Shown in pieces: positions 1,709 through 33,320 of a stretch of DNA of 39,364 nucleotides (within the stretch, counting starts at the first letter, position 1; the number at the start of each line of letters is the position of its first letter). Where the stretch lies: positions 1 through 39,364 of the forward strand of contig DVLN01000134.1 in the NCBI GenBank assembly GCA_018715465.1, written 5' to 3'. Below the pieces are notes generated by a model, which ran no database searches, was not told the DNA's origin, and was given only the letters and a program-made list of their open reading frames with translations. A program made the translations under genes and the position numbers. This DNA comes from Candidatus Faecivivens stercorigallinarum (lineage in GTDB: Bacteria; Bacillota; Clostridia; Oscillospirales; Ruminococcaceae).

Positions 1709-3316
1709 TTATTTACCGTTGTTTGCGCGCCAGTTGTCCAGCTGGGTCTGCTTTTCAGCCATATATTCCTGGTAGCCGGCAGCGTTCAGTTTGTCGAGCA
1801 TCTCAGGGATAGCAGTCTCAGGGTCAGACATGCCGTATTCGATCGACTTCTGGTATTCGGTATAGGCGTTGGACAAAGCAGTATACTGGGTAGCAACTGT
1901 CGAGTTGTCAAACTGGAAACCGGATGCCTCCGAAACGGTTGCATTGGCGTTGAATTCCTCGTAAACATCCCACAGGTTGGTCGGGTTTCCGTATTCCGGC
2001 ATTGCAAGGAACTGGCCGGGAGCCAGCCACTGGAGAGCATGGTTGTATTCCGCGTCTTCCTTGAACTTGGCGGTGCCGTCGATCTCCTCAAAGTCTACGT
2101 CCTTCTCGCCCCACTTGAACAGCTCATTCCATTCGGAAGAGGTGTACATGAAGTTCATATACTGCATCGCTGCGACAATGTCTTCGGTGTTGGAGCAGAT
2201 GCACCAGGGCATCGAAGCAATCGAGTTGGAAGCGGTGAAGTCGGGACCGCCTACAACAATGGTCATGTCCTGACCGCAAAGGGTGGATTCCTGAATATCC
2301 GAACCGGGTTTGTAGTTGGTGATGTAGGACATCAGCGAGCCTGCCTTGACGCGGGCGTTGGCAGCGGTGGTGTCGGTCAGGTCGGAAGGATTGATACAGC
2401 CGTATTTGTACAGCTCAGTCATGCCATTGACCATCTCAAGGTAGGAGTCGTCCGAGAACCAGTCGACGACATCGCCCTTGCCGTAGTCAGCCAGTACGCC
2501 GAAATAGTCGCCGCCCAGTGCGTCAACATCTGTCCAGCCTGCCTGTAAGCCGCCGGGGGAGAAGGTGTCCATGTCGGGGTTGGCATCGTGCGCTGCTTTC
2601 AGAATCGTGATCAGGTCTTCCAGACCGTTTACGCGCCAGACGTCGCTCTCCAGGTCGGGAACGAGATCCATATAATCAGCTGCAGCTTCCAGGTACTGGG
2701 TACCGATTGCCAGTGCAAAACGGCCCTGTGCGTTTTCTTTCTGCTGGGAAACGCCATAGAGGATGCCGTCCGCGCTGCGGCAGGCGTCCAGGATGTCCCA
2801 TCCCATCGTATCAATAATGCCAGAACCATAGGTTTCCAGCAGGCTGTAGCCGTCAACTTCCTGTTCAAGGTCTTCCCAGTAATCTTTTGCAATACCATTG
2901 GTATAACCAACGCTGATCGAAGAGATAATGTCGATCTGCTCACCGCCGGAGATGGACAGGGTAACCGACTGGGTGCGGTTTGCAAAGTCGGTGATCTGCA
3001 TTTCAACCTGAAGGTTCAGGGCAGGGATGGTCAGTTCGTTCATCTTTTCGACGATACGGTCGATACCATCCAGCGTGCCGCTGTAGGTCGGCCAGTTGAC
3101 GACGATGGTCTGCGGTTCGGTGCGTGCCGCGATCGCTTCAGCAGCCGGGTCGGCGGAAGAATCGCCGGAAGAGCTTTCAGAATCGCTGCTGGAAGTGGTG
3201 CTGCTGCCGCTTTGGGAGTCGGTGGTTGAACTGGTGGTATCCGAGCTGCCGCAGGCGGAAAGGCTGGATACAGTCATCAGAGCTGCTGCAAGGGCAATTG
3301 CAATGCGTTTTTTCAT
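1709..3316 (-). CDS. ABC transporter extracellular solute-binding lipoprotein (large, family-1/LplA-like sugar type)
   Basis: Signal peptide with lipobox MKKRIAIALAAALMTVSSLSAC, then a Ser/Thr/Asp-rich linker. The 535-aa size and composition are typical of large CUT1-type binding proteins. Confidence 0.8.
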   Translation of the reverse strand: MKKRIAIALAAALMTVSSLSACGSSDTTSSTTDSQSGSSTTSSSDSESSSGDSSADPAAEAIAARTEPQTIVVNWPTYSGTLDGIDRIVEKMNELTIPALNLQVEMQITDFANRTQSVTLSISGGEQIDIISSISVGYTNGIAKDYWEDLEQEVDGYSLLETYGSGIIDTMGWDILDACRSADGILYGVSQQKENAQGRFALAIGTQYLEAAADYMDLVPDLESDVWRVNGLEDLITILKAAHDANPDMDTFSPGGLQAGWTDVDALGGDYFGVLADYGKGDVVDWFSDDSYLEMVNGMTELYKYGCINPSDLTDTTAANARVKAGSLMSYITNYKPGSDIQESTLCGQDMTIVVGGPDFTASNSIASMPWCICSNTEDIVAAMQYMNFMYTSSEWNELFKWGEKDVDFEEIDGTAKFKEDAEYNHALQWLAPGQFLAMPEYGNPTNLWDVYEEFNANATVSEASGFQFDNSTVATQYTALSNAYTEYQKSIEYGMSDPETAIPEMLDKLNAAGYQEYMAEKQTQLDNWRANNGK

Positions 3317-3472
3317 TAGGGTACATCCTTTCTGTATAATTGTTCAAAAATTCACCCAAATATTTTGCTTGCTGTTTACATTATAGCCTTGCATATTGAA
3401 AATGTCAATCATTTGGCGGCCGATTAATCGTTATTTGCACAGGTTCGCAGAATACTGCCAATACGACCGCAG

Positions 3473-3533
3473 AAAAATACAAACCGCCCTTTTGCGTTGT
3501 TTCCACAGAAAGGAAACCTGCAAAAGGGCGGTT
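3473..3533 (-). terminator. rho-independent terminator of the MBL hydrolase gene
   Basis: AACCGCCCTTTTGC (3482-3495) pairs with GCAAAAGGGCGGTT (3520-3533), with an inner GTTTCC/GGAAAC hairpin. The minus strand continues TGTATTTTT. Confidence 0.7.
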
Positions 3534-3543
3534 GGCCGTTTGA

Positions 3544-4380
3544 TCAGAATTCGATTTCCATTCCATCATAAGAGACGGTAAATCCTTCCGCTTCACGGAT
3601 CATCTGGTCGTAAAGCAGGCCGTCATTATGGGAGAAATGGTTGAGGATAAACCGGGTCGTGCTGTCGCAAATGCCTGCTTCAATCAGCCGGTTTTTGACC
3701 TCCCGGTCGTCCGGCAGTCCCATGTGTCCGCCTTTGGGGCCGACTTTGCTGGTGCCGCAGGTGCCGTCCAGGCTGACAAGATCGATATGTCCGCATTTCC
3801 CGAGGAAATCCCAGACTTCCGGGTAAAAGTTGCCGGTATCGTGGGCATACAGTACCCGTTTATCCGCCTGTTCAATCAGGTAGATGAACGGCTGCCCGTT
3901 TTTCAGCTCGTGCATATGGTTGGCAGGAAGGGGGGTAACGGTATAGTCCCCGGCGGTAACCGGTTCAAACGGGGTCAGGATATGGAAATGCAGCGTGTTC
4001 ATAGTTTCCCGGTTTGCCTCCCAGCTGACCTGATCAAACAGCGCCTTGGTTCCCGCGGCACAGTAAATGTCCAGGTCAGGTGATGTCATCCGGTGGCTGT
4101 AGACGCTGCCGCGGACGGTCAGCTCCTGCGGGTAGAAGTGGTCCATGTGCCAGTGGGTGACAAACAGGTACTTGACCGCCGAAAAGTCCAGTCCGCTCAT
4201 CAGCTTGTGATAATAGGTGTCGGGCGGCAGGTCGATTAGCAGGTCATGGTTGACCAGAGTCTGGGAACGGGTGCGGATATTGCGCCCGCCAAGCCGCGCC
4301 GCTTCCCGGCAGTTTTTGCAGTTGCAGAAGAGGGCGGGCCAGCCTTCCGCCGCGCCGGTTCCAAGGTAGGTCAGTTTCAT
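3544..4380 (-). CDS. MBL-fold metallo-hydrolase (PhnP-like)
   Basis: N-terminus MKLTYLGTGAAEGWPALFCNCKNCREA and metal motif FVTHWHMDHF. RBS GAAAGGAG lies upstream. Confidence 0.85.
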   Translation of the reverse strand: MKLTYLGTGAAEGWPALFCNCKNCREAARLGGRNIRTRSQTLVNHDLLIDLPPDTYYHKLMSGLDFSAVKYLFVTHWHMDHFYPQELTVRGSVYSHRMTSPDLDIYCAAGTKALFDQVSWEANRETMNTLHFHILTPFEPVTAGDYTVTPLPANHMHELKNGQPFIYLIEQADKRVLYAHDTGNFYPEVWDFLGKCGHIDLVSLDGTCGTSKVGPKGGHMGLPDDREVKNRLIEAGICDSTTRFILNHFSHNDGLLYDQMIREAEGFTVSYDGMEIEF

Positions 4381-4444: not shown

Positions 4445-4557
4445 ACTGCCGGCGGGAAAAAATAATGGGGAATTGCGTCTTGACTTTTTTGCTTTAAAGT
4501 ATTATACTATAACAACAGACGTTGACAGCTGATGCTGCGCGCAAAATCTCTGCGCGA

Positions 4558-4586
4558 TTGACAAACAGTGTATGAAAATGTATAAT
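4558..4586 (+). promoter_or_regulatory. consensus sigma-A promoter upstream of DAHP synthase
   Basis: TTGACA (4558-4563), a 17-nt spacer, then TATAAT (4581-4586). A second promoter, TTGACT-17-TATACT, lies at 4480-4508. Confidence 0.6.
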
Positions 4587-4652
4587 AAGGAAAAAGTCCG
4601 GCCTGGCCGGATCCGGCGTTTCGTGACGCTGATAGGATAGGAGTGTAGAATA

Positions 4653-5681
4653 ATGGCTATGGAAATGGTACGGGTACTGCCCGATCCCGAAGCAATCAAG
4701 GTCCAGTACGGGCTGACCAAGGAGTTCACCGAAAAAAAACAAAAGCGCGATGAGGAAATCGCAAAGGTTTTTACCGGTGAATCCAATAAGTTTCTGATGA
4801 TCATTGGGCCGTGTTCCGCTGACCGGGAGGACGCTGTCCTGGAGTATATCCACCGGCTGGCAAGGCTGCAGGAACAGGTCGCGGATAAAATCCTGATCAT
4901 CCCCCGTATCTATACCAACAAGCCCCGCACGACCGGCGACGGCTATAAGGGTATGCTCCACCAGCCTGACCCTACCAAGGAGTCGGACATGCTCTCCGGT
5001 TTGCTGGCGATCCGTCATCTGCACACCCAGGCTTTTGAAGACACCGGGATGACCTGCGCGGATGAGATGCTTTACCCGGAAAACTACGCGTTTCTGTCCG
5101 ACGTGCTGGGGTATGTCGCGATTGGCGCGCGTTCGGTCGAGAACCAGCAGCACCGTCTGGTCGCTTCCGGCGTTGAACAGCCGATCGGGATGAAAAACCC
5201 GACTTCCGGTGACCTGACCGTCATGCTTAACTCGATTACTGCCGCTCAGCATCATCACACCTTCCTTTATCGCAACGCTGAGGTGCATACCTCCGGCAAC
5301 CCGCTTGCCCATGCAATCCTGCGCGGTGCGGTGGATGCCTACGGCCGTACCCAGCCCAACTATCATTACGAGGACCTGTCCCGTCTGTATGAGATGTACG
5401 CTGCCAAGAATCTGAAGAATATGGCGCTGATCGTAGACGCCAACCATTCCAATTCCGGCAAACAGTACCTTGAACAAATCCGTATTTCTAATGAAGTGCT
5501 GCATTCCTGCCGTCATTCGGATAATATCCGTTCGATGGTCAAGGGCCTGATGATTGAGAGCTACCTCGAAGACGGCGCACAGAAGGTGGAAGAAGGCGTA
5601 TTCGGACGTTCGATCACCGACCCCTGCCTCGGTTGGGAAAAGACTGAAAAGCTCATGTTCACGATCGCTGATCAGCTCTGA
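4653..5681 (+). CDS. 3-deoxy-7-phosphoheptulonate (DAHP) synthase, class I
   Basis: LMIIGPCSADREDAVLEYIHRLARL, IYTNKPRTTGDGYKGMLHQPD and IGARSVENQQHRLVASG are the classic AroF/G/H-type motifs. RBS GGATAGGAG. Confidence 0.9.
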   Translation: MAMEMVRVLPDPEAIKVQYGLTKEFTEKKQKRDEEIAKVFTGESNKFLMIIGPCSADREDAVLEYIHRLARLQEQVADKILIIPRIYTNKPRTTGDGYKGMLHQPDPTKESDMLSGLLAIRHLHTQAFEDTGMTCADEMLYPENYAFLSDVLGYVAIGARSVENQQHRLVASGVEQPIGMKNPTSGDLTVMLNSITAAQHHHTFLYRNAEVHTSGNPLAHAILRGAVDAYGRTQPNYHYEDLSRLYEMYAAKNLKNMALIVDANHSNSGKQYLEQIRISNEVLHSCRHSDNIRSMVKGLMIESYLEDGAQKVEEGVFGRSITDPCLGWEKTEKLMFTIADQL

Positions 5682-5769
5682 TACAAACGAAAATAGATCA
5701 TCTGGCGGGAACTGTCAGCGACCTATTGTCGCGGGCAGTTCCCGCGTATCTATTGAGGAGTGCAGAAAG

Positions 5770-7299
5770 ATGGAAAAGTTTTATCAATGTTTTTTGAAAA
5801 CTGGAATTGACCTTGCTCCATTTGGAATTGAGCGGCGGGAAGAGAATATACCTTATTTCTGTACGCCCAAAGGTGCGGATGTAATCGGCTGGACGGGGGG
5901 CGACGGCATCCACTACTGTTTTGTCCGCGGCTTCGGCGGAATGGTGTTCGCAGTCAGCCCGATGAATGGCGGGAGTGACTGTGTCCATCCGGTCGCGGAG
6001 AATTTCGCGGATTTTCTCCGGCTGCTGATCGCCTGCGGCGGTGAATCTGCAATTGAACAGGCCTGGCAGTGGAGCCGGGAACAGTTCGACGCCTTTTTGC
6101 AGGAATACCCGCCTTCCAATGCAGCAAAGGCTGTGTCTGCGCAGATTACGGAAAAACTCGGGCTTCAGCTGATGGATGACCCGTGGGGGTATATTATGCA
6201 GGTGCAGCAGGCGTTTGATTATACCCGAATTCCATATTCCGAGGATTACGATGACGAGGATATGAACCCCGACGCAAAACCCCAGCCGCCGGAATGGCAG
6301 GTGTACTTTGACGGCAATTTCTGGGGTCATTCCGGACGTGACAAAGAAGGAAAGGAAATCACGGTCGGGAAGTTGTTTGAATGGAACGGCAGGGAATGGC
6401 TGATCCCGGCGGTGTATCTGTGCGGTAAGGGGCTGGTCGTCGACTTTTGTATGCGGGTACCGGCGGATGAAATCCGCGCGTTTCTCGAAAAATGGGAGAT
6501 CGACCCGCAATCGGAAGAAGAAAGGGAATTTTCTCAGGAAGAACAGATGCTGATTGACCTCGACAATCCGCTGAACGTGGATATCAGCCCGGAAGTGGTG
6601 GTCAATGGCAGAAAACTGAACGCCTGTGGTGGGAGCGGGACCTATTATAACCCGGTACTGCCGCATGAGATAGGTGATGAATCTGTCTGGATTGCCGATC
6701 ATTACCAGCTGGACAAAAACGCTGGCTGGATGATTGCACGCTGGAGCTTTGAGTGGGCGACCAGCAAAAAACCAGCAATAAAGGAACTGTCTGTCACCAT
6801 GCGCCAGTACCCAAGAAATATTCCGGGGCCGCATTTTACGGCAGACAAACCGGGCGATACCTTTACCTTTGTCTGTCCGTCAACAGGGGAGCGGCACACC
6901 TTGACGGTTCAGGAAATTCAATCGGATGAGATATCGTCCGAGCGGGATTTTATGCCCGGGTTCGAGTTTCCGTCCCATTACCGGATGATGACCTATACCA
7001 TCACGCCCAAACTGCCCGATGGGGCGGTGCATGTCTTTGACTGTGCAGAATCTGACCAGCCCAGACAAATCCAGCCTGTTTCCCCGGAATATCCGTATCA
7101 GCCCCAGGCATCCATCGGCTGTGCAATCGGCATCATTGGGGGTGCAGATGGGCCGACCGCCATCATGGTTGGCGTGCCGGAAGGGGCAAAGGTACAGACC
7201 GCCTGTTCGTCGCTGCACTTTGAACCGGCTGAAAAAGTCGAATGGCGGCTCACCTTCCGGGAAGAACCCTGCGGGGAAATGGTGGTCAGGCTGATTTGA
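5770..7299 (+). CDS. hypothetical protein (509 aa), no recognisable catalytic motif
   Basis: The track ORF 5554..7299 overlaps the DAHP synthase gene. The first ATG with an RBS (GAGGAG at 5755-5760) is 5770 (MEKFYQCFLKTG...). Coding-like composition runs throughout, and the opposite-strand ORF is an artefact. Confidence 0.7.
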   Translation: MEKFYQCFLKTGIDLAPFGIERREENIPYFCTPKGADVIGWTGGDGIHYCFVRGFGGMVFAVSPMNGGSDCVHPVAENFADFLRLLIACGGESAIEQAWQWSREQFDAFLQEYPPSNAAKAVSAQITEKLGLQLMDDPWGYIMQVQQAFDYTRIPYSEDYDDEDMNPDAKPQPPEWQVYFDGNFWGHSGRDKEGKEITVGKLFEWNGREWLIPAVYLCGKGLVVDFCMRVPADEIRAFLEKWEIDPQSEEEREFSQEEQMLIDLDNPLNVDISPEVVVNGRKLNACGGSGTYYNPVLPHEIGDESVWIADHYQLDKNAGWMIARWSFEWATSKKPAIKELSVTMRQYPRNIPGPHFTADKPGDTFTFVCPSTGERHTLTVQEIQSDEISSERDFMPGFEFPSHYRMMTYTITPKLPDGAVHVFDCAESDQPRQIQPVSPEYPYQPQASIGCAIGIIGGADGPTAIMVGVPEGAKVQTACSSLHFEPAEKVEWRLTFREEPCGEMVVRLI

Positions 7300-9226: not shown

Positions 9227-9340
9227 GAAAGGAAAAAGGTTGACCGGATTGCAAATCCTGACTGACCCGGTATTACAGGTTTGTAAATGGTATATTTTTT
9301 TATGGTTAATCTGTTGCGTTTGTCGAGCAGTTGGAGCGCG

Positions 9341-9565
9341 GCCGACCAATGCGAATTAGTCCGTGGCGACACGCCACCCGGTGCGTTCGCTATGGCTGTT
9401 ACCATTGTAACCGAGGCGGTCGCAACGTCGCCGACCAATGCAAATTAGTTCGTGGCGACACGCCGCCCGGCGCGTTCGCTATGGCTGTTACCATTGTAAC
9501 CGAGGCGGTCGGAACGCCGCCGACCAACGCGAATTAGTCCGTGGCGACACGCCACCGCGCCGCTT
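9341..9565. repeat. 89-bp tandem repeat, about 2.5 copies
   Basis: Copies start at 9341, 9430 and 9519 (GCCGACCAAyGCrAATTAGTyCGTGGCGACACGCC...). Each contains the hairpins GTGGCG-ACA-CGCCAC and GGTCGG-AACGCCG-CCGACC. The unit is homologous to a module at 33065-33135 and 22998-23100. Confidence 0.9.
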
Positions 9566-9592
9566 GCAAAAAACGACATGGGGTGGTATAAT
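9564..9592 (+). promoter_or_regulatory. sigma-A promoter for recJ
   Basis: TTGCAA (9564-9569), a 17-nt spacer, then TGgTATAAT (extended -10, hexamer at 9587-9592). Confidence 0.6.
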
Positions 9593-9634
9593 GATTTTGT
9601 ATTTTTACCTGACAGCTGAAAGGAAGGAAATGTC

Positions 9635-13901: not shown

Positions 13902-14400
13902 GCGGGGCCCGGTGTCCGGGCGGACTTAATGCCAACGTTGTATCACGCTCTAAATGCTCAGCAAACGCACGTCGCTTCACCGCTCGGAACGATAGAAGTT
14001 GTACGCAATCTCTGCCCGGTGGTTTGACCGGCGCGCAGAGCGCCGGGGTTGGGTTACGCACAAACTGGCGTTGGTAATAATTCAAAAGTTTAGGTCAAGC
14101 CTTTTCAAAGGCTTGCAGGTCCAGGACGGAGTCCTGGTCGCCCGTCGCAACGGGCGAAATCCTTTCCCCAAAATAAGCTCAGCAAGGGGTAGCAAAATGC
14201 CCGCAGGCATTTTGTGTAGGGGACGCATAGCAAGGGCGTCCCCTATGGGAAAAGTCCGCTCGATGCGGGCTTTTTCCATAAACGAGCGAGCTTGTAACTT
14301 TCAATTTATGCTGTCAGTGGGACTACGTGGGCCGGCACGGCGCTGACGATTTTTCATCCGTTTTCCCCATAAACTGTCCGGTGGACAGTTTATGGCGGGT
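13902..14400 (-). repeat. mosaic multi-hairpin element, copy A (inverted relative to copies B and C)
   Basis: Chain of hairpins at 14097-14114, 14121-14137, 14138-14157, 14194-14213, 14217-14245, 14247-14277 and 14367-14395. Its reverse complement is collinear with 22633-22940 and 32679-33003. The segment 13921-14050 matches the two ends of copy C. Confidence 0.8.
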
Positions 14401-14539
14401 GGCGGGTCGCCATGGACGAATTCGCGATGGTTGGACAGGGCGGATTCAAAAGTAAAACTCCCTCCGTCACCGCCTGTACGGCTATACCCAAAAAATGCTC
14501 CATATCCATATCAATCCATTCAACAGGAGATAAAACAGT

Positions 14540-22186: not shown

Positions 22187-22429
22187 ATGAGACTGGACAA
22201 GTTTTTGAAGGTCAGCCGGATTATTAAACGGCGCACCGTTGCAAATGAAGCCTGTGATGCCGGCAGAATCCTTGTCGGGGACAAGCCCGCCCGCGCTTCG
22301 TATGAGGTCAAGGTCGGGGACGTACTGGAAATCGGTGTCGGCCGCCCGATGAAAGTCAGGGTCCTCTCGGTCAACGAGTACGCGACCAAGGAAAACGCAG
22401 CGGAAATGTACGAGATCCTGCCGGAATAA
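22187..22429 (+). CDS. yabO: S4-domain RNA-binding protein (YabO/Hsp15-like)
   Basis: MRLDKFLKVSRIIKRRTVANEACDAGRILVGDKPARASYEVKVGDVLEI. RBS AAAGGA. Confidence 0.9.
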   Translation: MRLDKFLKVSRIIKRRTVANEACDAGRILVGDKPARASYEVKVGDVLEIGVGRPMKVRVLSVNEYATKENAAEMYEILPE

Positions 22430-22457
22430 CGGCGGAATGTACATGGATAAAGTGCAG

Positions 22458-22487
22458 GGCGACGGCAGGAAACTGCTGTCGCCTTTT
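22458..22487 (+). terminator. rho-independent terminator after yabO
   Basis: GGCGACGGCAG-GAAA-CTGCTGTCGCC followed by TTTT. Confidence 0.75.
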
Positions 22488-22489
22488 CC

Positions 22490-23215
22490 TATCTCCGGCT
22501 TTCTGTTTTGGCGGTGACAGAAGGAGTAAACGGCGGCAACAGCTGCCGCCTTGGCTCTCCATTAGGAGAGCAGCCATCCGTAGAGGCTTCACGATAGTGA
22601 CTGAGAGGGCGAAAAACGATTATGTTGTACCGCCATGAACTGTCCACCGGACAGTTCATGGGGAGAACAAGTCGAATATCGTCAGCGCCGTGCCGGCTCA
22701 CGTAGTCCCACCTGAGCGGGTAAGGCGGAACTGCTGTCCTCGCTCGTTTTTATGGATGAAGAGGGTATCGAACCCCCTTCATCCATAGGGGACGCCCTTG
22801 CTATGCGTCCCCTACGCAAAATACCTGCGGGCATTTTGCTACCCCTTGCTGAGCTGATTTTGGGGAAAGGATTTCGCTCTCTGCGGAGAGCGACCAGGGG
22901 CTCTGCCCGCTGGACCCCGCAAGCCTTTGAAAAGGCTTGACCTAAACTTTTGAATGATTACTCCCGTTAGAAAGTGCTTTTCGTTACCAACTACCTACCC
23001 GGCGCGTTTGCAAAGATTGTTATTTTGCAATCGAGGCCGTCGGTAGCGCATGTATGCGCTTCGCGGCCGAACAACGCGATCAAGTCAGCGCGGACACCGC
23101 GCCCGTCGGTAGTGCATGTATGCGCTTCGCGGCCGAACAACGCGAACAAGGGAGCGGAAGCATTCCGCCGCAGGCACTGCGCCCCGGAAACCGGGTAACA
23201 AATGGGGAGTGTGTT
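22490..23215 (+). repeat. mosaic multi-hairpin element, copy B
   Basis: Hairpins at 22532-22550, 22633-22661, 22754-22784, 22786-22814, 22818-22837, 22874-22893, 22894-22913 and 22921-22938, plus the 66-bp duplicated module. It is collinear with copy C and with the reverse complement of copy A. Confidence 0.8.
23037..23168. repeat. 66-bp tandem duplication inside copy B
   Basis: CCGTCGGTAGyGCATGTATGCGCTTCGCGGCCGAACAACGCGAwCAAG occurs at 23037 and at 23103. Each copy contains the palindrome GCGCAT-GT-ATGCGC. Confidence 0.8.
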
Positions 23216-23285
23216 CATATAATGGGTTGGCACTGCATATCCTTTCCAGAGGGCAGGCGCCCCCGCTATGAAAGGATGTGGTCGG

Positions 23286-23579
23286 ATGGATCAGCAACTC
23301 GCGCGTGACCGTAACCCTCAGCCCGCTAAACCTCACCGCCTCTCTCTCGATTCCCGTAAACGTCTCGAACTGACCGGCGTCAAACAGGTTGAATGCTTTG
23401 ACGATACCTTCGCCGTCCTCGATACAACAATGGGCCGGTTGGAGATCCGCGGTCAGGGCCTGGCAATCCTCGACCTCTCTTCCGATGGCGGCGACCTCTC
23501 GATGACCGGTACCGTCTCGGCACTCTTTTATCAGGATGACCAGCCCCGCGCCTTCTTCGGGAGGGGGCGGAAAAAATGA
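23286..23579 (+). CDS. yabP: sporulation protein YabP
   Basis: HRLSLDSRKRLELTGVKQVECFDDTFAVLDTTMGRLEIRGQGLAILDL matches the YabP pattern. The ATG at 23286 follows GAAAGGA, and 23268 is an alternative start. Confidence 0.85.
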   Translation: MDQQLARDRNPQPAKPHRLSLDSRKRLELTGVKQVECFDDTFAVLDTTMGRLEIRGQGLAILDLSSDGGDLSMTGTVSALFYQDDQPRAFFGRGRKK

Positions 23580-32589: not shown

Positions 32590-33320
32590 TTGTTTGAGCG
32601 GTGAAGCAACGTTCGTTTTCTGAACTGTTGGAGCGTGGTTGAGTATTGGCATTATGTCGGCAGTGACACGCTGCACCGTTGTTGACTGTCCACCGGACAG
32701 TCAACAAGGTCAGGCGGGCAATTATCGTCAGCGGCGTGCCGCCCCACGTAGTCCCACCTGAGCAAATAAGCCGAAACTGCTGTCCTCGCTCGTTTATGGG
32801 AAAAGGCCGCATCGAACGGCCTTTTCCCATAGGGGACGCCCTTGCTATAGCGTCCAGCAAATCCCTTCGGGAATTGCACGCCCAATGCCTGCGGGCATTG
32901 GGCTACCCCTTGCTGAGCTTATTTTGGGGAAAGGATTTCGCTCTCTGCGGAGAGCGACCAGGGGCTCTGCCCGCTGGACCCCGCAATTTTTTGAAAAAAA
33001 TTGAGTAAAACTTTTATGTCATTACTTCCGTCAGAAAGAGCTTTTCGTTACCAACTACCTACCAGGCGCGTTGGCTCAGGCTGTTATTCGCACAATCGAG
33101 GCGGTCGGAACGCCGCCGACCATCGCGAACAAGGGAGCGCAGGCTCTGCGCCCTTTGAAAAGGCTTGACCTAAACTTTTTGTCATGACCGACGTTAAAAA
33201 GTGCAGAACATAACCCCGGCGCTCTGCGCGCCGGTCAAACTGCCGGGCAGAGATTGCGCACAATTTCTATCGTCCCGAGCGGAAAAAAACATGCGCTTGC
33301 TGGGCACGTAGGGCGGGGGA
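32590..33320 (+). repeat. mosaic multi-hairpin element, copy C (longest; contains all modules)
   Basis: Module X at 32596-32660. Hairpins at 32679-32707, 32798-32828, 32857-32877, 32881-32902, 32938-32957 and 32984-33003. The GGTCGG/CCGACC module is at 33098-33121, hairpin GCGCAG-GCT-CTGCGC at 33137-33151, and module M1 at 33210-33282. Confidence 0.8.

Follow-up and report, generated by a model that had tools for sequence, protein, structure and literature searches.

A mosaic chain of hairpins between yabO and yabP as a probable member of an undescribed palindrome-rich DNA repeat family

The element designated copy B, located in the spacer between yabO and yabP, is probably a member of an undescribed interspersed family of mosaic, palindrome-rich DNA repeats belonging to one uncultured Oscillospiraceae lineage. 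Rather than a gene for a structured RNA, the family seems to be a new relative of the REP/BIME, NIME, and BOX repeats. The window, i.e., the whole stretch of 39,364 nucleotides that was analyzed, contains in its 39 kb three collinear copies (A, B, and C) as well as a stand-alone array formed by the 3' module of the element. In a widespread uncultured lineage of the human gut, much of the intergenic DNA consists of this repeat, which is of interest mainly for the extent of its reshuffling within a species and for the near-invariant hairpin H1.

Anatomy of the element and its copies in the window

The yabO-yabP spacer is 856 nt long according to Pfam matches and the genes called on public contigs, which place yabO with its S4 domain at 22187-22429 and yabP at 23286-23579. 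Copy B as a whole composite element spans 22490-23196 on the + strand, with an nhmmer match at 22625-23103 (415 bits). It is placed between the yabO terminator and the yabP promoter, as the native terminator at 22463-22481 and a promoter-like site at 23195-23223 flank it. Folding of 22622-23106 as single-stranded DNA gives about 14 hairpins with z = -8.8. The five hairpins quoted in an earlier note on this DNA were found in place by direct reading, namely (i) at 22633-22661, (ii) at 22754-22784, (iii) at 22818-22837, (iv) at 22874-22893, and (v) at 22921-22938, and their quoted counterparts in 32679-33003 and in the reverse complement of 14138-14395 are correct as well. The element is larger than that note stated, as copy B also comprises a 5' module and two 3' R modules.

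The 5' accessory module (22490-22625, + strand) has three small hairpins and the motif GGTGACAGAAGGAGTAAACG at 22513-22532. The motif occurs once in the window and is present at locus C in other strains of the same species (L027-L034), so the 5' module is exchangeable. Hairpin H1 (22630-22664, + strand) has the core ACTGTCC-ACC-GGACAGT and an outer stem of 6 bp. The core is identical in 23 of 23 aligned copies, and its loop ACC is changed to ACT in some strain copies at locus C. The outer stem is hypervariable yet complementary, with 17 distinct arms and 110 of 126 positions in Watson-Crick pairing. The near-invariant hairpin suggests a putative binding partner.

Hairpin H3 (22751-22787, + strand), which is hairpin (ii) of the earlier note, has a stem of 12-15 bp and a conserved 7-nt loop YATCGAR. 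It is 94.5% paired, and double-sided change is seen at 12 of its 15 pairs. Hairpins H4, H5, and H6 (22788-22865, + strand) were recognized from the alignment, pairing statistics, and fold: the arms of H4 are GGGGACGC/GCGTCCCC, H5 is hairpin (iii) with a TGCG loop, and H6 is formed by CCCC/GGGG around a conserved 16-nt loop. Hairpins H7, H8, and H9 (22874-22940, + strand; sequence, alignment, and fold) correspond to hairpin (iv) with its TGCG loop, to CCAGG..CCTGG, and to hairpin (v), respectively. H9 is 100% paired, with both sides changed at four of eight pairs, and the conserved linker TTGACCTAAACTTTT stands directly after it. The 3' R module is present twice in copy B (22990-23168, + strand; 66-nt offset, repeat D7 at 23032-23090 and 23098-23156), versus one R copy in most other strains. 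At the end of each R of copy B stands a GC hairpin with a 6-bp stem and a loop of 3 nt, and this terminal hairpin covaries (helix 8). Two more small GC hairpins come after the R modules, and copy B ends at about 23196.

Copy C lies at 32596-33308 on the + strand and consists of a full unit (32669-33152) and a partial second unit (33152-33308), with nhmmer scores of 400 and 75 bits, respectively. Its neighbors are a CmpB-like gene on the - strand and rpmE. Copy A (13903-14470) is on the - strand, where its nhmmer match at 13906-14402 has 429 bits; it is located between relA/spoT and dtd, antisense to both, and its ortholog in Ruminococcaceae bacterium UBA1448 is locus L010. The collinearity of the three copies, as claimed earlier, was confirmed in alignment A1 and by repeats D1, D6, D10, I1, I3, I4, and I6. 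Conserved 17-24-mers from the loops and linkers have exactly three occurrences in the window, against 0-0.1 expected. The fourth locus (9327-9593, + strand, repeat D3) lies upstream of recJ and carries three R modules of 89 nt each as a solo array in tandem.

The layout of the unit is (R)n-body-(R)m, with a body of about 400 nt that has 12-15 different short hairpins and with R of about 90-160 nt. According to alignment A2 with its 23 copies, H1 comes after a small variable GC hairpin and is followed by a chain of hairpins in fixed order, and then by the linker TTGACCTAAACTTTT, a variable stretch, and the R module. The conserved loops of the chain are YATCGAR, CCTTGCTAT, TGCG twice, and TTGCTGAGCTNATTTT. 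The R module has the form GGCGCGTT..GGCTGTTA..CGAGGCGGTCGGAACGCCGCCGACCANCGCGAAC and ends in the 6-bp GC hairpin with a 3-nt loop. R, or at least its terminal hairpin, is also found upstream of H1 in most copies, and the start of the body is always 1-3 nt downstream of a small hairpin. R modules number one, two, or three, and they are duplicated, as in copy B, or form a stand-alone tandem array. Optional modules are a 20-nt alternative of H4, a 65-nt insert of three hairpins after H7, and a 5' module carrying GGTGACRGAAGGAGTAAACG. Neither 20 nor 65 nt is a multiple of 3, and these lengths, together with the paired changes of the arms, argue against coding. Long-range pairing between the 5' and R sites was rejected, since the G/C variants of both sites do not co-vary in the aligned copies.

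Distribution of the family and exchange between strains

With nhmmer profiles made from the window copies, about 18 full units of 480-615 nt were recognized, along with numerous partial units; the matches come from three Oscillospiraceae species, and the best E-values reach 1e-160. The host species of the loci are Ruminococcaceae bacterium UBA1448, MAG BRZ_GV bin68, and Ca. Faecivivens stercoripullorum. With 98-99% identity in Dtd and MBL, UBA1448 belongs to the species of the window, and bin68 is a sister species with RelA 97% and RecJ 90% identical. One scan of a genome collection with a 20-base loop pattern gave 22 loci, all but L005 and L007 from the three Oscillospiraceae; these two were rejected as copies, being chance 21-mer matches within AT-rich coding sequence. 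The metagenome scan gave four short contigs only. At least 28 body copies are present in about 100 kb of the bin68 loci, and many copies of the family are at contig ends, as expected for a repeat that breaks assemblies. Coming from incomplete genomes, the figures on copy number and orientation are partial. Every copy seen is intergenic, and in this extragenic, many-copy location the family agrees with REP/BIME and REPIN repeats. As far as sampled, the family is confined to one uncultured Oscillospiraceae lineage. In the index of the assembly collection, the window's L31 protein is listed for 297 blocks and its YabO protein for 270.

No match of the element was obtained by blastn to plasmids and phages, and the combined pattern and a 22-mer gave no matches in viral contigs. 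The 17-mer H1 core had seven matches in viral contigs, about the number expected by chance, and none of them with the remaining element. In the IMG/VR contigs L055, L057, and L061, the palindrome at the H1 core ACTGTCCACCGGACAGT is 3-4 bp longer than the core, as in the element.

Loci A, B, and C were retrieved from about 8-10 strains each by exact-protein look-ups; the same look-ups with YabP (long start) and with the esterase gave no matches. The element is present at all three loci in all sampled strains. The strain divergence at these loci is 0.75-2.0% in the flanks versus 4.3-17% and 70-212 gap columns in the element. At locus B, the former range holds for the flanking 4 kb and 2.9 kb and the latter values for the yabO-yabP spacer, the length of which is 693 to 923 nt across strains. 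The differences come as blocks, with whole hairpins or modules replaced by alleles known from other copies. At locus B, H1 is changed from CCATGA/TCATGG to TCTCAA/TTGAGA, H3 from GGATGAAGAGGG to GGGAAAAGGCCG, which is the allele of copy C, and H9 from AAGCCTTT to AATTTTTT. Between strains, R is present once or twice, and whole modules are inserted, deleted, or moved among loci. Alleles of H3, H4, the 65-nt insert, and H9 are found in all combinations across copies.

Such stable locations with block-exchanged content point to ectopic gene conversion among dispersed copies. The proposal of a REP/BIME/BOX-like DNA element assembled from exchangeable palindromic units, made in the earlier note, is supported in that whole hairpins and modules swap between copies and between strains at the same locus. 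Most of the stem "replacement" is recombination that shuffles pre-existing stem alleles, not independent compensatory mutation at each locus. The copies lie in otherwise neutral DNA between an upstream terminator and a downstream promoter, in either orientation, and the breakpoints of exchange are probably situated in the conserved loops and linkers. With junctions there and arms 3-9 nt apart, both arms would be transferred together, and complementarity would survive each exchange with no fresh compensatory mutation. The stem alleles themselves had to arise under some pairing pressure, and their arms may stay complementary by quasi-palindrome or template-switch correction, which in replication can restore pairing in one step at the DNA level (PMC8794818). 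The original spread may have been due to a trans-acting enzyme encoded elsewhere that recognizes the near-invariant top of the H1 hairpin. Effects on neighboring genes, such as termination or mRNA stabilization, would be secondary.

That the copies were selected as a cis-regulatory array between operons, acting as bidirectional terminators, insulators, or mRNA-stabilizing hairpins with a benefit for the host, is very improbable. The copies are always intergenic, no strain lacks the element at the loci, some of which are common to the sister species, and several stems have A-tract/T-tract flanks, e.g., AAAAGGCCG..CGGCCTTTT and AAAATGCC..GGCATTTT. However, the terminator scan inside the elements gave none above chance, and the flanking genes' own terminator and promoter sit outside the element. 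Moreover, the content varies wildly among strains with identical flanks, which is unlike a tuned regulator.

Contig L032 (ena:ERZ27336973:k87_10559) has yabO joined to rpmE via a single hybrid element at 2917-4204. It skips about 10 kb between copies B and C, with yabP, yabQ, divIC, an S1 gene, a GGDEF/EAL gene, and the NAPRTase gene. The junction is either a real deletion by recombination of two direct copies or a short-read assembly chimera. In general, the repeat breaks short-read assemblies and can create chimeric joins or deletions of this kind. As the fastest-changing sequence between strains, it is a possible strain-typing marker and a natural system of ectopic gene conversion.

Stem pairing in relation to RNA and DNA

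Stem complementarity is far above chance. It was evaluated on 66 hand-specified pairs of eight helices in 23 copies from three species, with 500 column shuffles as control. Paired cells make up 94.4%, against 80.7 ± 0.6% in the shuffles, none of the 500 reaching the observed value, and in a slid control with the 3' partners moved by 1-3 columns 33-50% are paired. Double-sided change was identified at 37 of the 66 pairs, in 211 cells versus 72.8 ± 6.6 in the shuffles. Independently, RNAalifold predicted 57 pairs, 31 of them with compensated changes. The mean top-base frequency is 0.92 in loops, 0.82 in stems, and 0.815 in linkers; the earlier description of conserved loops and linkers with variable stems is thus right for the loops and not for the linkers. 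Strong "covariation" is possible in DNA palindromes without RNA function, which calls for caution in ncRNA discovery pipelines.

A functional RNA is expected to tolerate G·U on its own strand, not A·C. Among the 1456 cells, the non-Watson-Crick ones are 27 G·T, 42 A·C, and 39 others, and a separate count of 1x1 mismatches inside Watson-Crick-only helices gave 13 G·T, 24 A·C, and 45 others. The mismatches of the H1 outer stem are seven A·C and one G·T. Five distinct H1 variants are mismatched (C·A) in the second outer-stem pair counted from the core, a CpG position where the 3' arm has CA for CG; this recurrent one-sided mismatch may reflect deamination bias or tolerance of G·U on the - strand. 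As RNA, the - strand has an MFE 7.7 kcal/mol lower, and the + strand is C-rich. Against dinucleotide shuffles, the two strands have similar z-scores, with -5 to -14 for + and -6 to -9 for -. The orientation of the copies is mixed: copy B is sense to yabO and yabP, copy A is antisense to relA and dtd, and copy C is between divergent genes. Watson-Crick complementarity that is equally good on both strands is a signature of DNA palindromes. The pairing constraint is plain Watson-Crick without a clear strand preference, and it points to DNA hairpins or cruciforms over folded RNA.

Promoter and terminator scans of the copies revealed none conserved. Rfam gave no matches in the window at the gathering threshold, only noise on 22400-23300 (E >= 1.3, bits far under the threshold), and no match to the elements at six other loci. 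A tRNA, tmRNA, or tRNA-derived element was rejected, as ARAGORN found no genes in the window and the only likeness is the T-loop-like loop of H3 on the - strand. The structured RNA family that the earlier note had considered is not supported in view of 27 G·T versus 42 A·C cells, equal z-scores on both strands, mixed orientation, and no conserved promoter or terminator.

A multi-copy structured ncRNA of about 500 nt, or a cis-acting UTR RNA, the hairpins of which would be preserved by selection at the RNA level and the loops of which would make tertiary or protein contacts, is regarded as improbable. The strong covariation and the better conservation of loops than of stems would agree with it. 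Both TGCG loops are C-G closed and represent a UNCG-type RNA tetraloop on the + strand, and the H3 loop reads TTCGATG, T-loop-like, on the - strand; these hints, however, fall on opposite strands. The A·C excess over G·T, about 1.5-fold overall, could be a weak sign of RNA from the - strand, where A·C equals G·U, but G·U-type intermediates are below 3% of cells despite 211 double changes. The lower MFE of the - strand would also favor RNA, but the difference is gone after base-composition control. Further points against RNA are that the copies are oriented both ways with respect to their flanking genes, that promoters and terminators are not conserved, that Rfam gave no match, and that optional modules of 20-140 nt vary in presence among strains.

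A functional nucleic-acid machine is likewise doubtful. It would be a multi-copy RNA of about 500 nt or a hairpin-chain ssDNA element with H1 as the site recognized by a putative new enzyme, having stems that are actively diversified yet complementary. For the RNA, the - strand of copy B would be likelier, because the H3 T-loop is there and A·C becomes G·U.

Gain and loss of copies, mobilization, and known repeat systems

The MatE-recJ spacer of bin68 has a partial R, a full body, and one R, while the window has three R modules only at this site; the adjoining recJ promoter region is nearly identical in both. An extra copy in bin68 follows the NAPRTase gene; the corresponding spacer of the window species is 128-170 nt long and lacks the element. 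These differences indicate gain or loss of bodies between close species. Within the species, the copies have fixed locations in all sampled strains, which gives no hint of ongoing movement. In the empty-site comparison with bin68, the intergenic DNA was unalignable and gave no boundary, target duplication, or clean empty site, and the flanks of the copies have no common duplication or conserved target motif. The recJ site of bin68 (L015) also has an extra lipoprotein-like ORF. In strain L047, the recJ spacer has the same length and no R-module match at E < 1e-5.

The earlier statement that the window has no transposase holds, as no transposase, integrase, HUH, or reverse-transcriptase domain was identified there by Pfam. 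The window genes with Pfam matches are all housekeeping: opp, recJ, relA, dtd, mazG, HU, yabOPQ, divIC, the NAPRTase gene, rpmE, dnaG, and sigA. In the other genomes, none of about 80 ORFs with a length of 110 aa or more, all located up to 2.5 kb from one of about 28 copies, matched a family of transposases, integrases, HUH enzymes, or reverse transcriptases. A MITE was rejected after the inverted-repeat scan of copy C, which revealed local hairpins and one internal 21-nt match of 81%, and no terminal pair. Phage tail-sheath and tail-fiber ORFs are within 2.5 kb of copies, probably at locus L013 of Ca. Faecivivens stercoripullorum, and if this assignment holds, the repeat also adjoins prophage DNA.

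It is possible, though unlikely, that the element is a non-autonomous mobile element (MITE/PATE- or REPIN-like) which is still moved as ssDNA. The mover would be a HUH Y1 transposase (RAYT or IS200/IS605 type) or other recombinase encoded elsewhere, with H1 and the terminal GC hairpin as its targets. Subterminal hairpins at both ends, strand-symmetric and strictly Watson-Crick, agree with this, as does the body that always begins 1-3 nt past a small hairpin. The top of H1 is constant in 50+ occurrences save for the ACC/ACT loop, with the lower stem free to vary, and the sister species differ in presence and absence of copies. Against it, neither the window nor the about 80 flanking ORFs revealed a HUH, transposase, or recombinase domain, the three window loci are occupied in all sampled strains, and neither a conserved target motif nor a clean empty site was recovered. 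For the mosaic DNA repeat family preferred here, the spread was presumably by transposition too, and no mobilizing gene, terminal inverted repeats, or target duplications were found.

The family is outside known named ones, as proposed earlier; it has no Rfam match, and literature searches gave no description. REP/BIME of Enterobacteria, REPINs of Pseudomonas, and the element are alike in being extragenic, high-copy, and made of palindromic units joined by conserved linkers. They are also alike in being mosaic, with a variable number of units, in either orientation, and mainly outside promoters. REPs have one or two types of 20-40-nt palindromes with a 5' GTAG-like guide, occur in inverted pairs, and have a cognate RAYT gene (PMC6006769). 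The element, in contrast, has 12-15 different hairpins in fixed direct order over 0.5-0.9 kb, its sequences are dissimilar, and the window and the about 80 flanking ORFs yielded no RAYT. An assignment to REP/BIME-REPIN by palindrome type, i.e., one or two types of 20-40 nt in inverted pairs, was rejected, as the hairpins are all different and in direct order.

NIME of Neisseria and RIME of Rhizobium are long intergenic arrays of interchangeable units spaced by a recurring short repeat, with content that differs among strains via recombination; in NIME, the inverted repeat dRS3 of 20 bp stands at the borders of the units. The element is similar in its intergenic arrays, interchangeable units, and strain variation by recombination. 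It differs from NIME in that the recurring unit is a 90-nt R module ending in a variable GC hairpin, and in that the taxa are others and the sequences unrelated. BOX of Streptococcus pneumoniae has the structure boxA-boxB(n)-boxC of about 100-300 nt, with three module types and predicted stem-loops. Like BOX, the element is from Firmicutes, intergenic, and composed of modules in fixed order, one of them tandem-amplified, with predicted stable stem-loops; unlike BOX, it is longer, has many more hairpins and R on both sides, and is unrelated in sequence. The agreement with BOX and NIME is in kind, not in homology, and comprises fixed order, R in one to three copies, and strain mosaicism. IS200/IS605-derived PATEs and MITEs are, like the element, non-coding and multi-copy with subterminal hairpins, and PATEs also share with it the lack of terminal inverted repeats. 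A PATE is expected to share its ends with a resident IS200/IS605 element and to be inserted 3' of a fixed tetra- or pentanucleotide. In contrast, no parent IS, conserved flanking target, or clean ends were identified for the element. Its unusual traits are the length of 0.5-0.9 kb, the many different hairpins in fixed order, and the R-body-R layout.

Elsewhere in the window, at 4494-7299, the large ORFs 4494-5516 (-) and 5554-7299 (+) and their antisense partners have no Pfam match; the public gene calls there (L062) are a DAHP synthase and a 509-aa protein without a Pfam domain. A NiCo riboswitch (RF02683, 86.9 bits), unrelated to the element, was identified in bin68 at L003 5222-5320 (- strand), about 1.1 kb from a copy.
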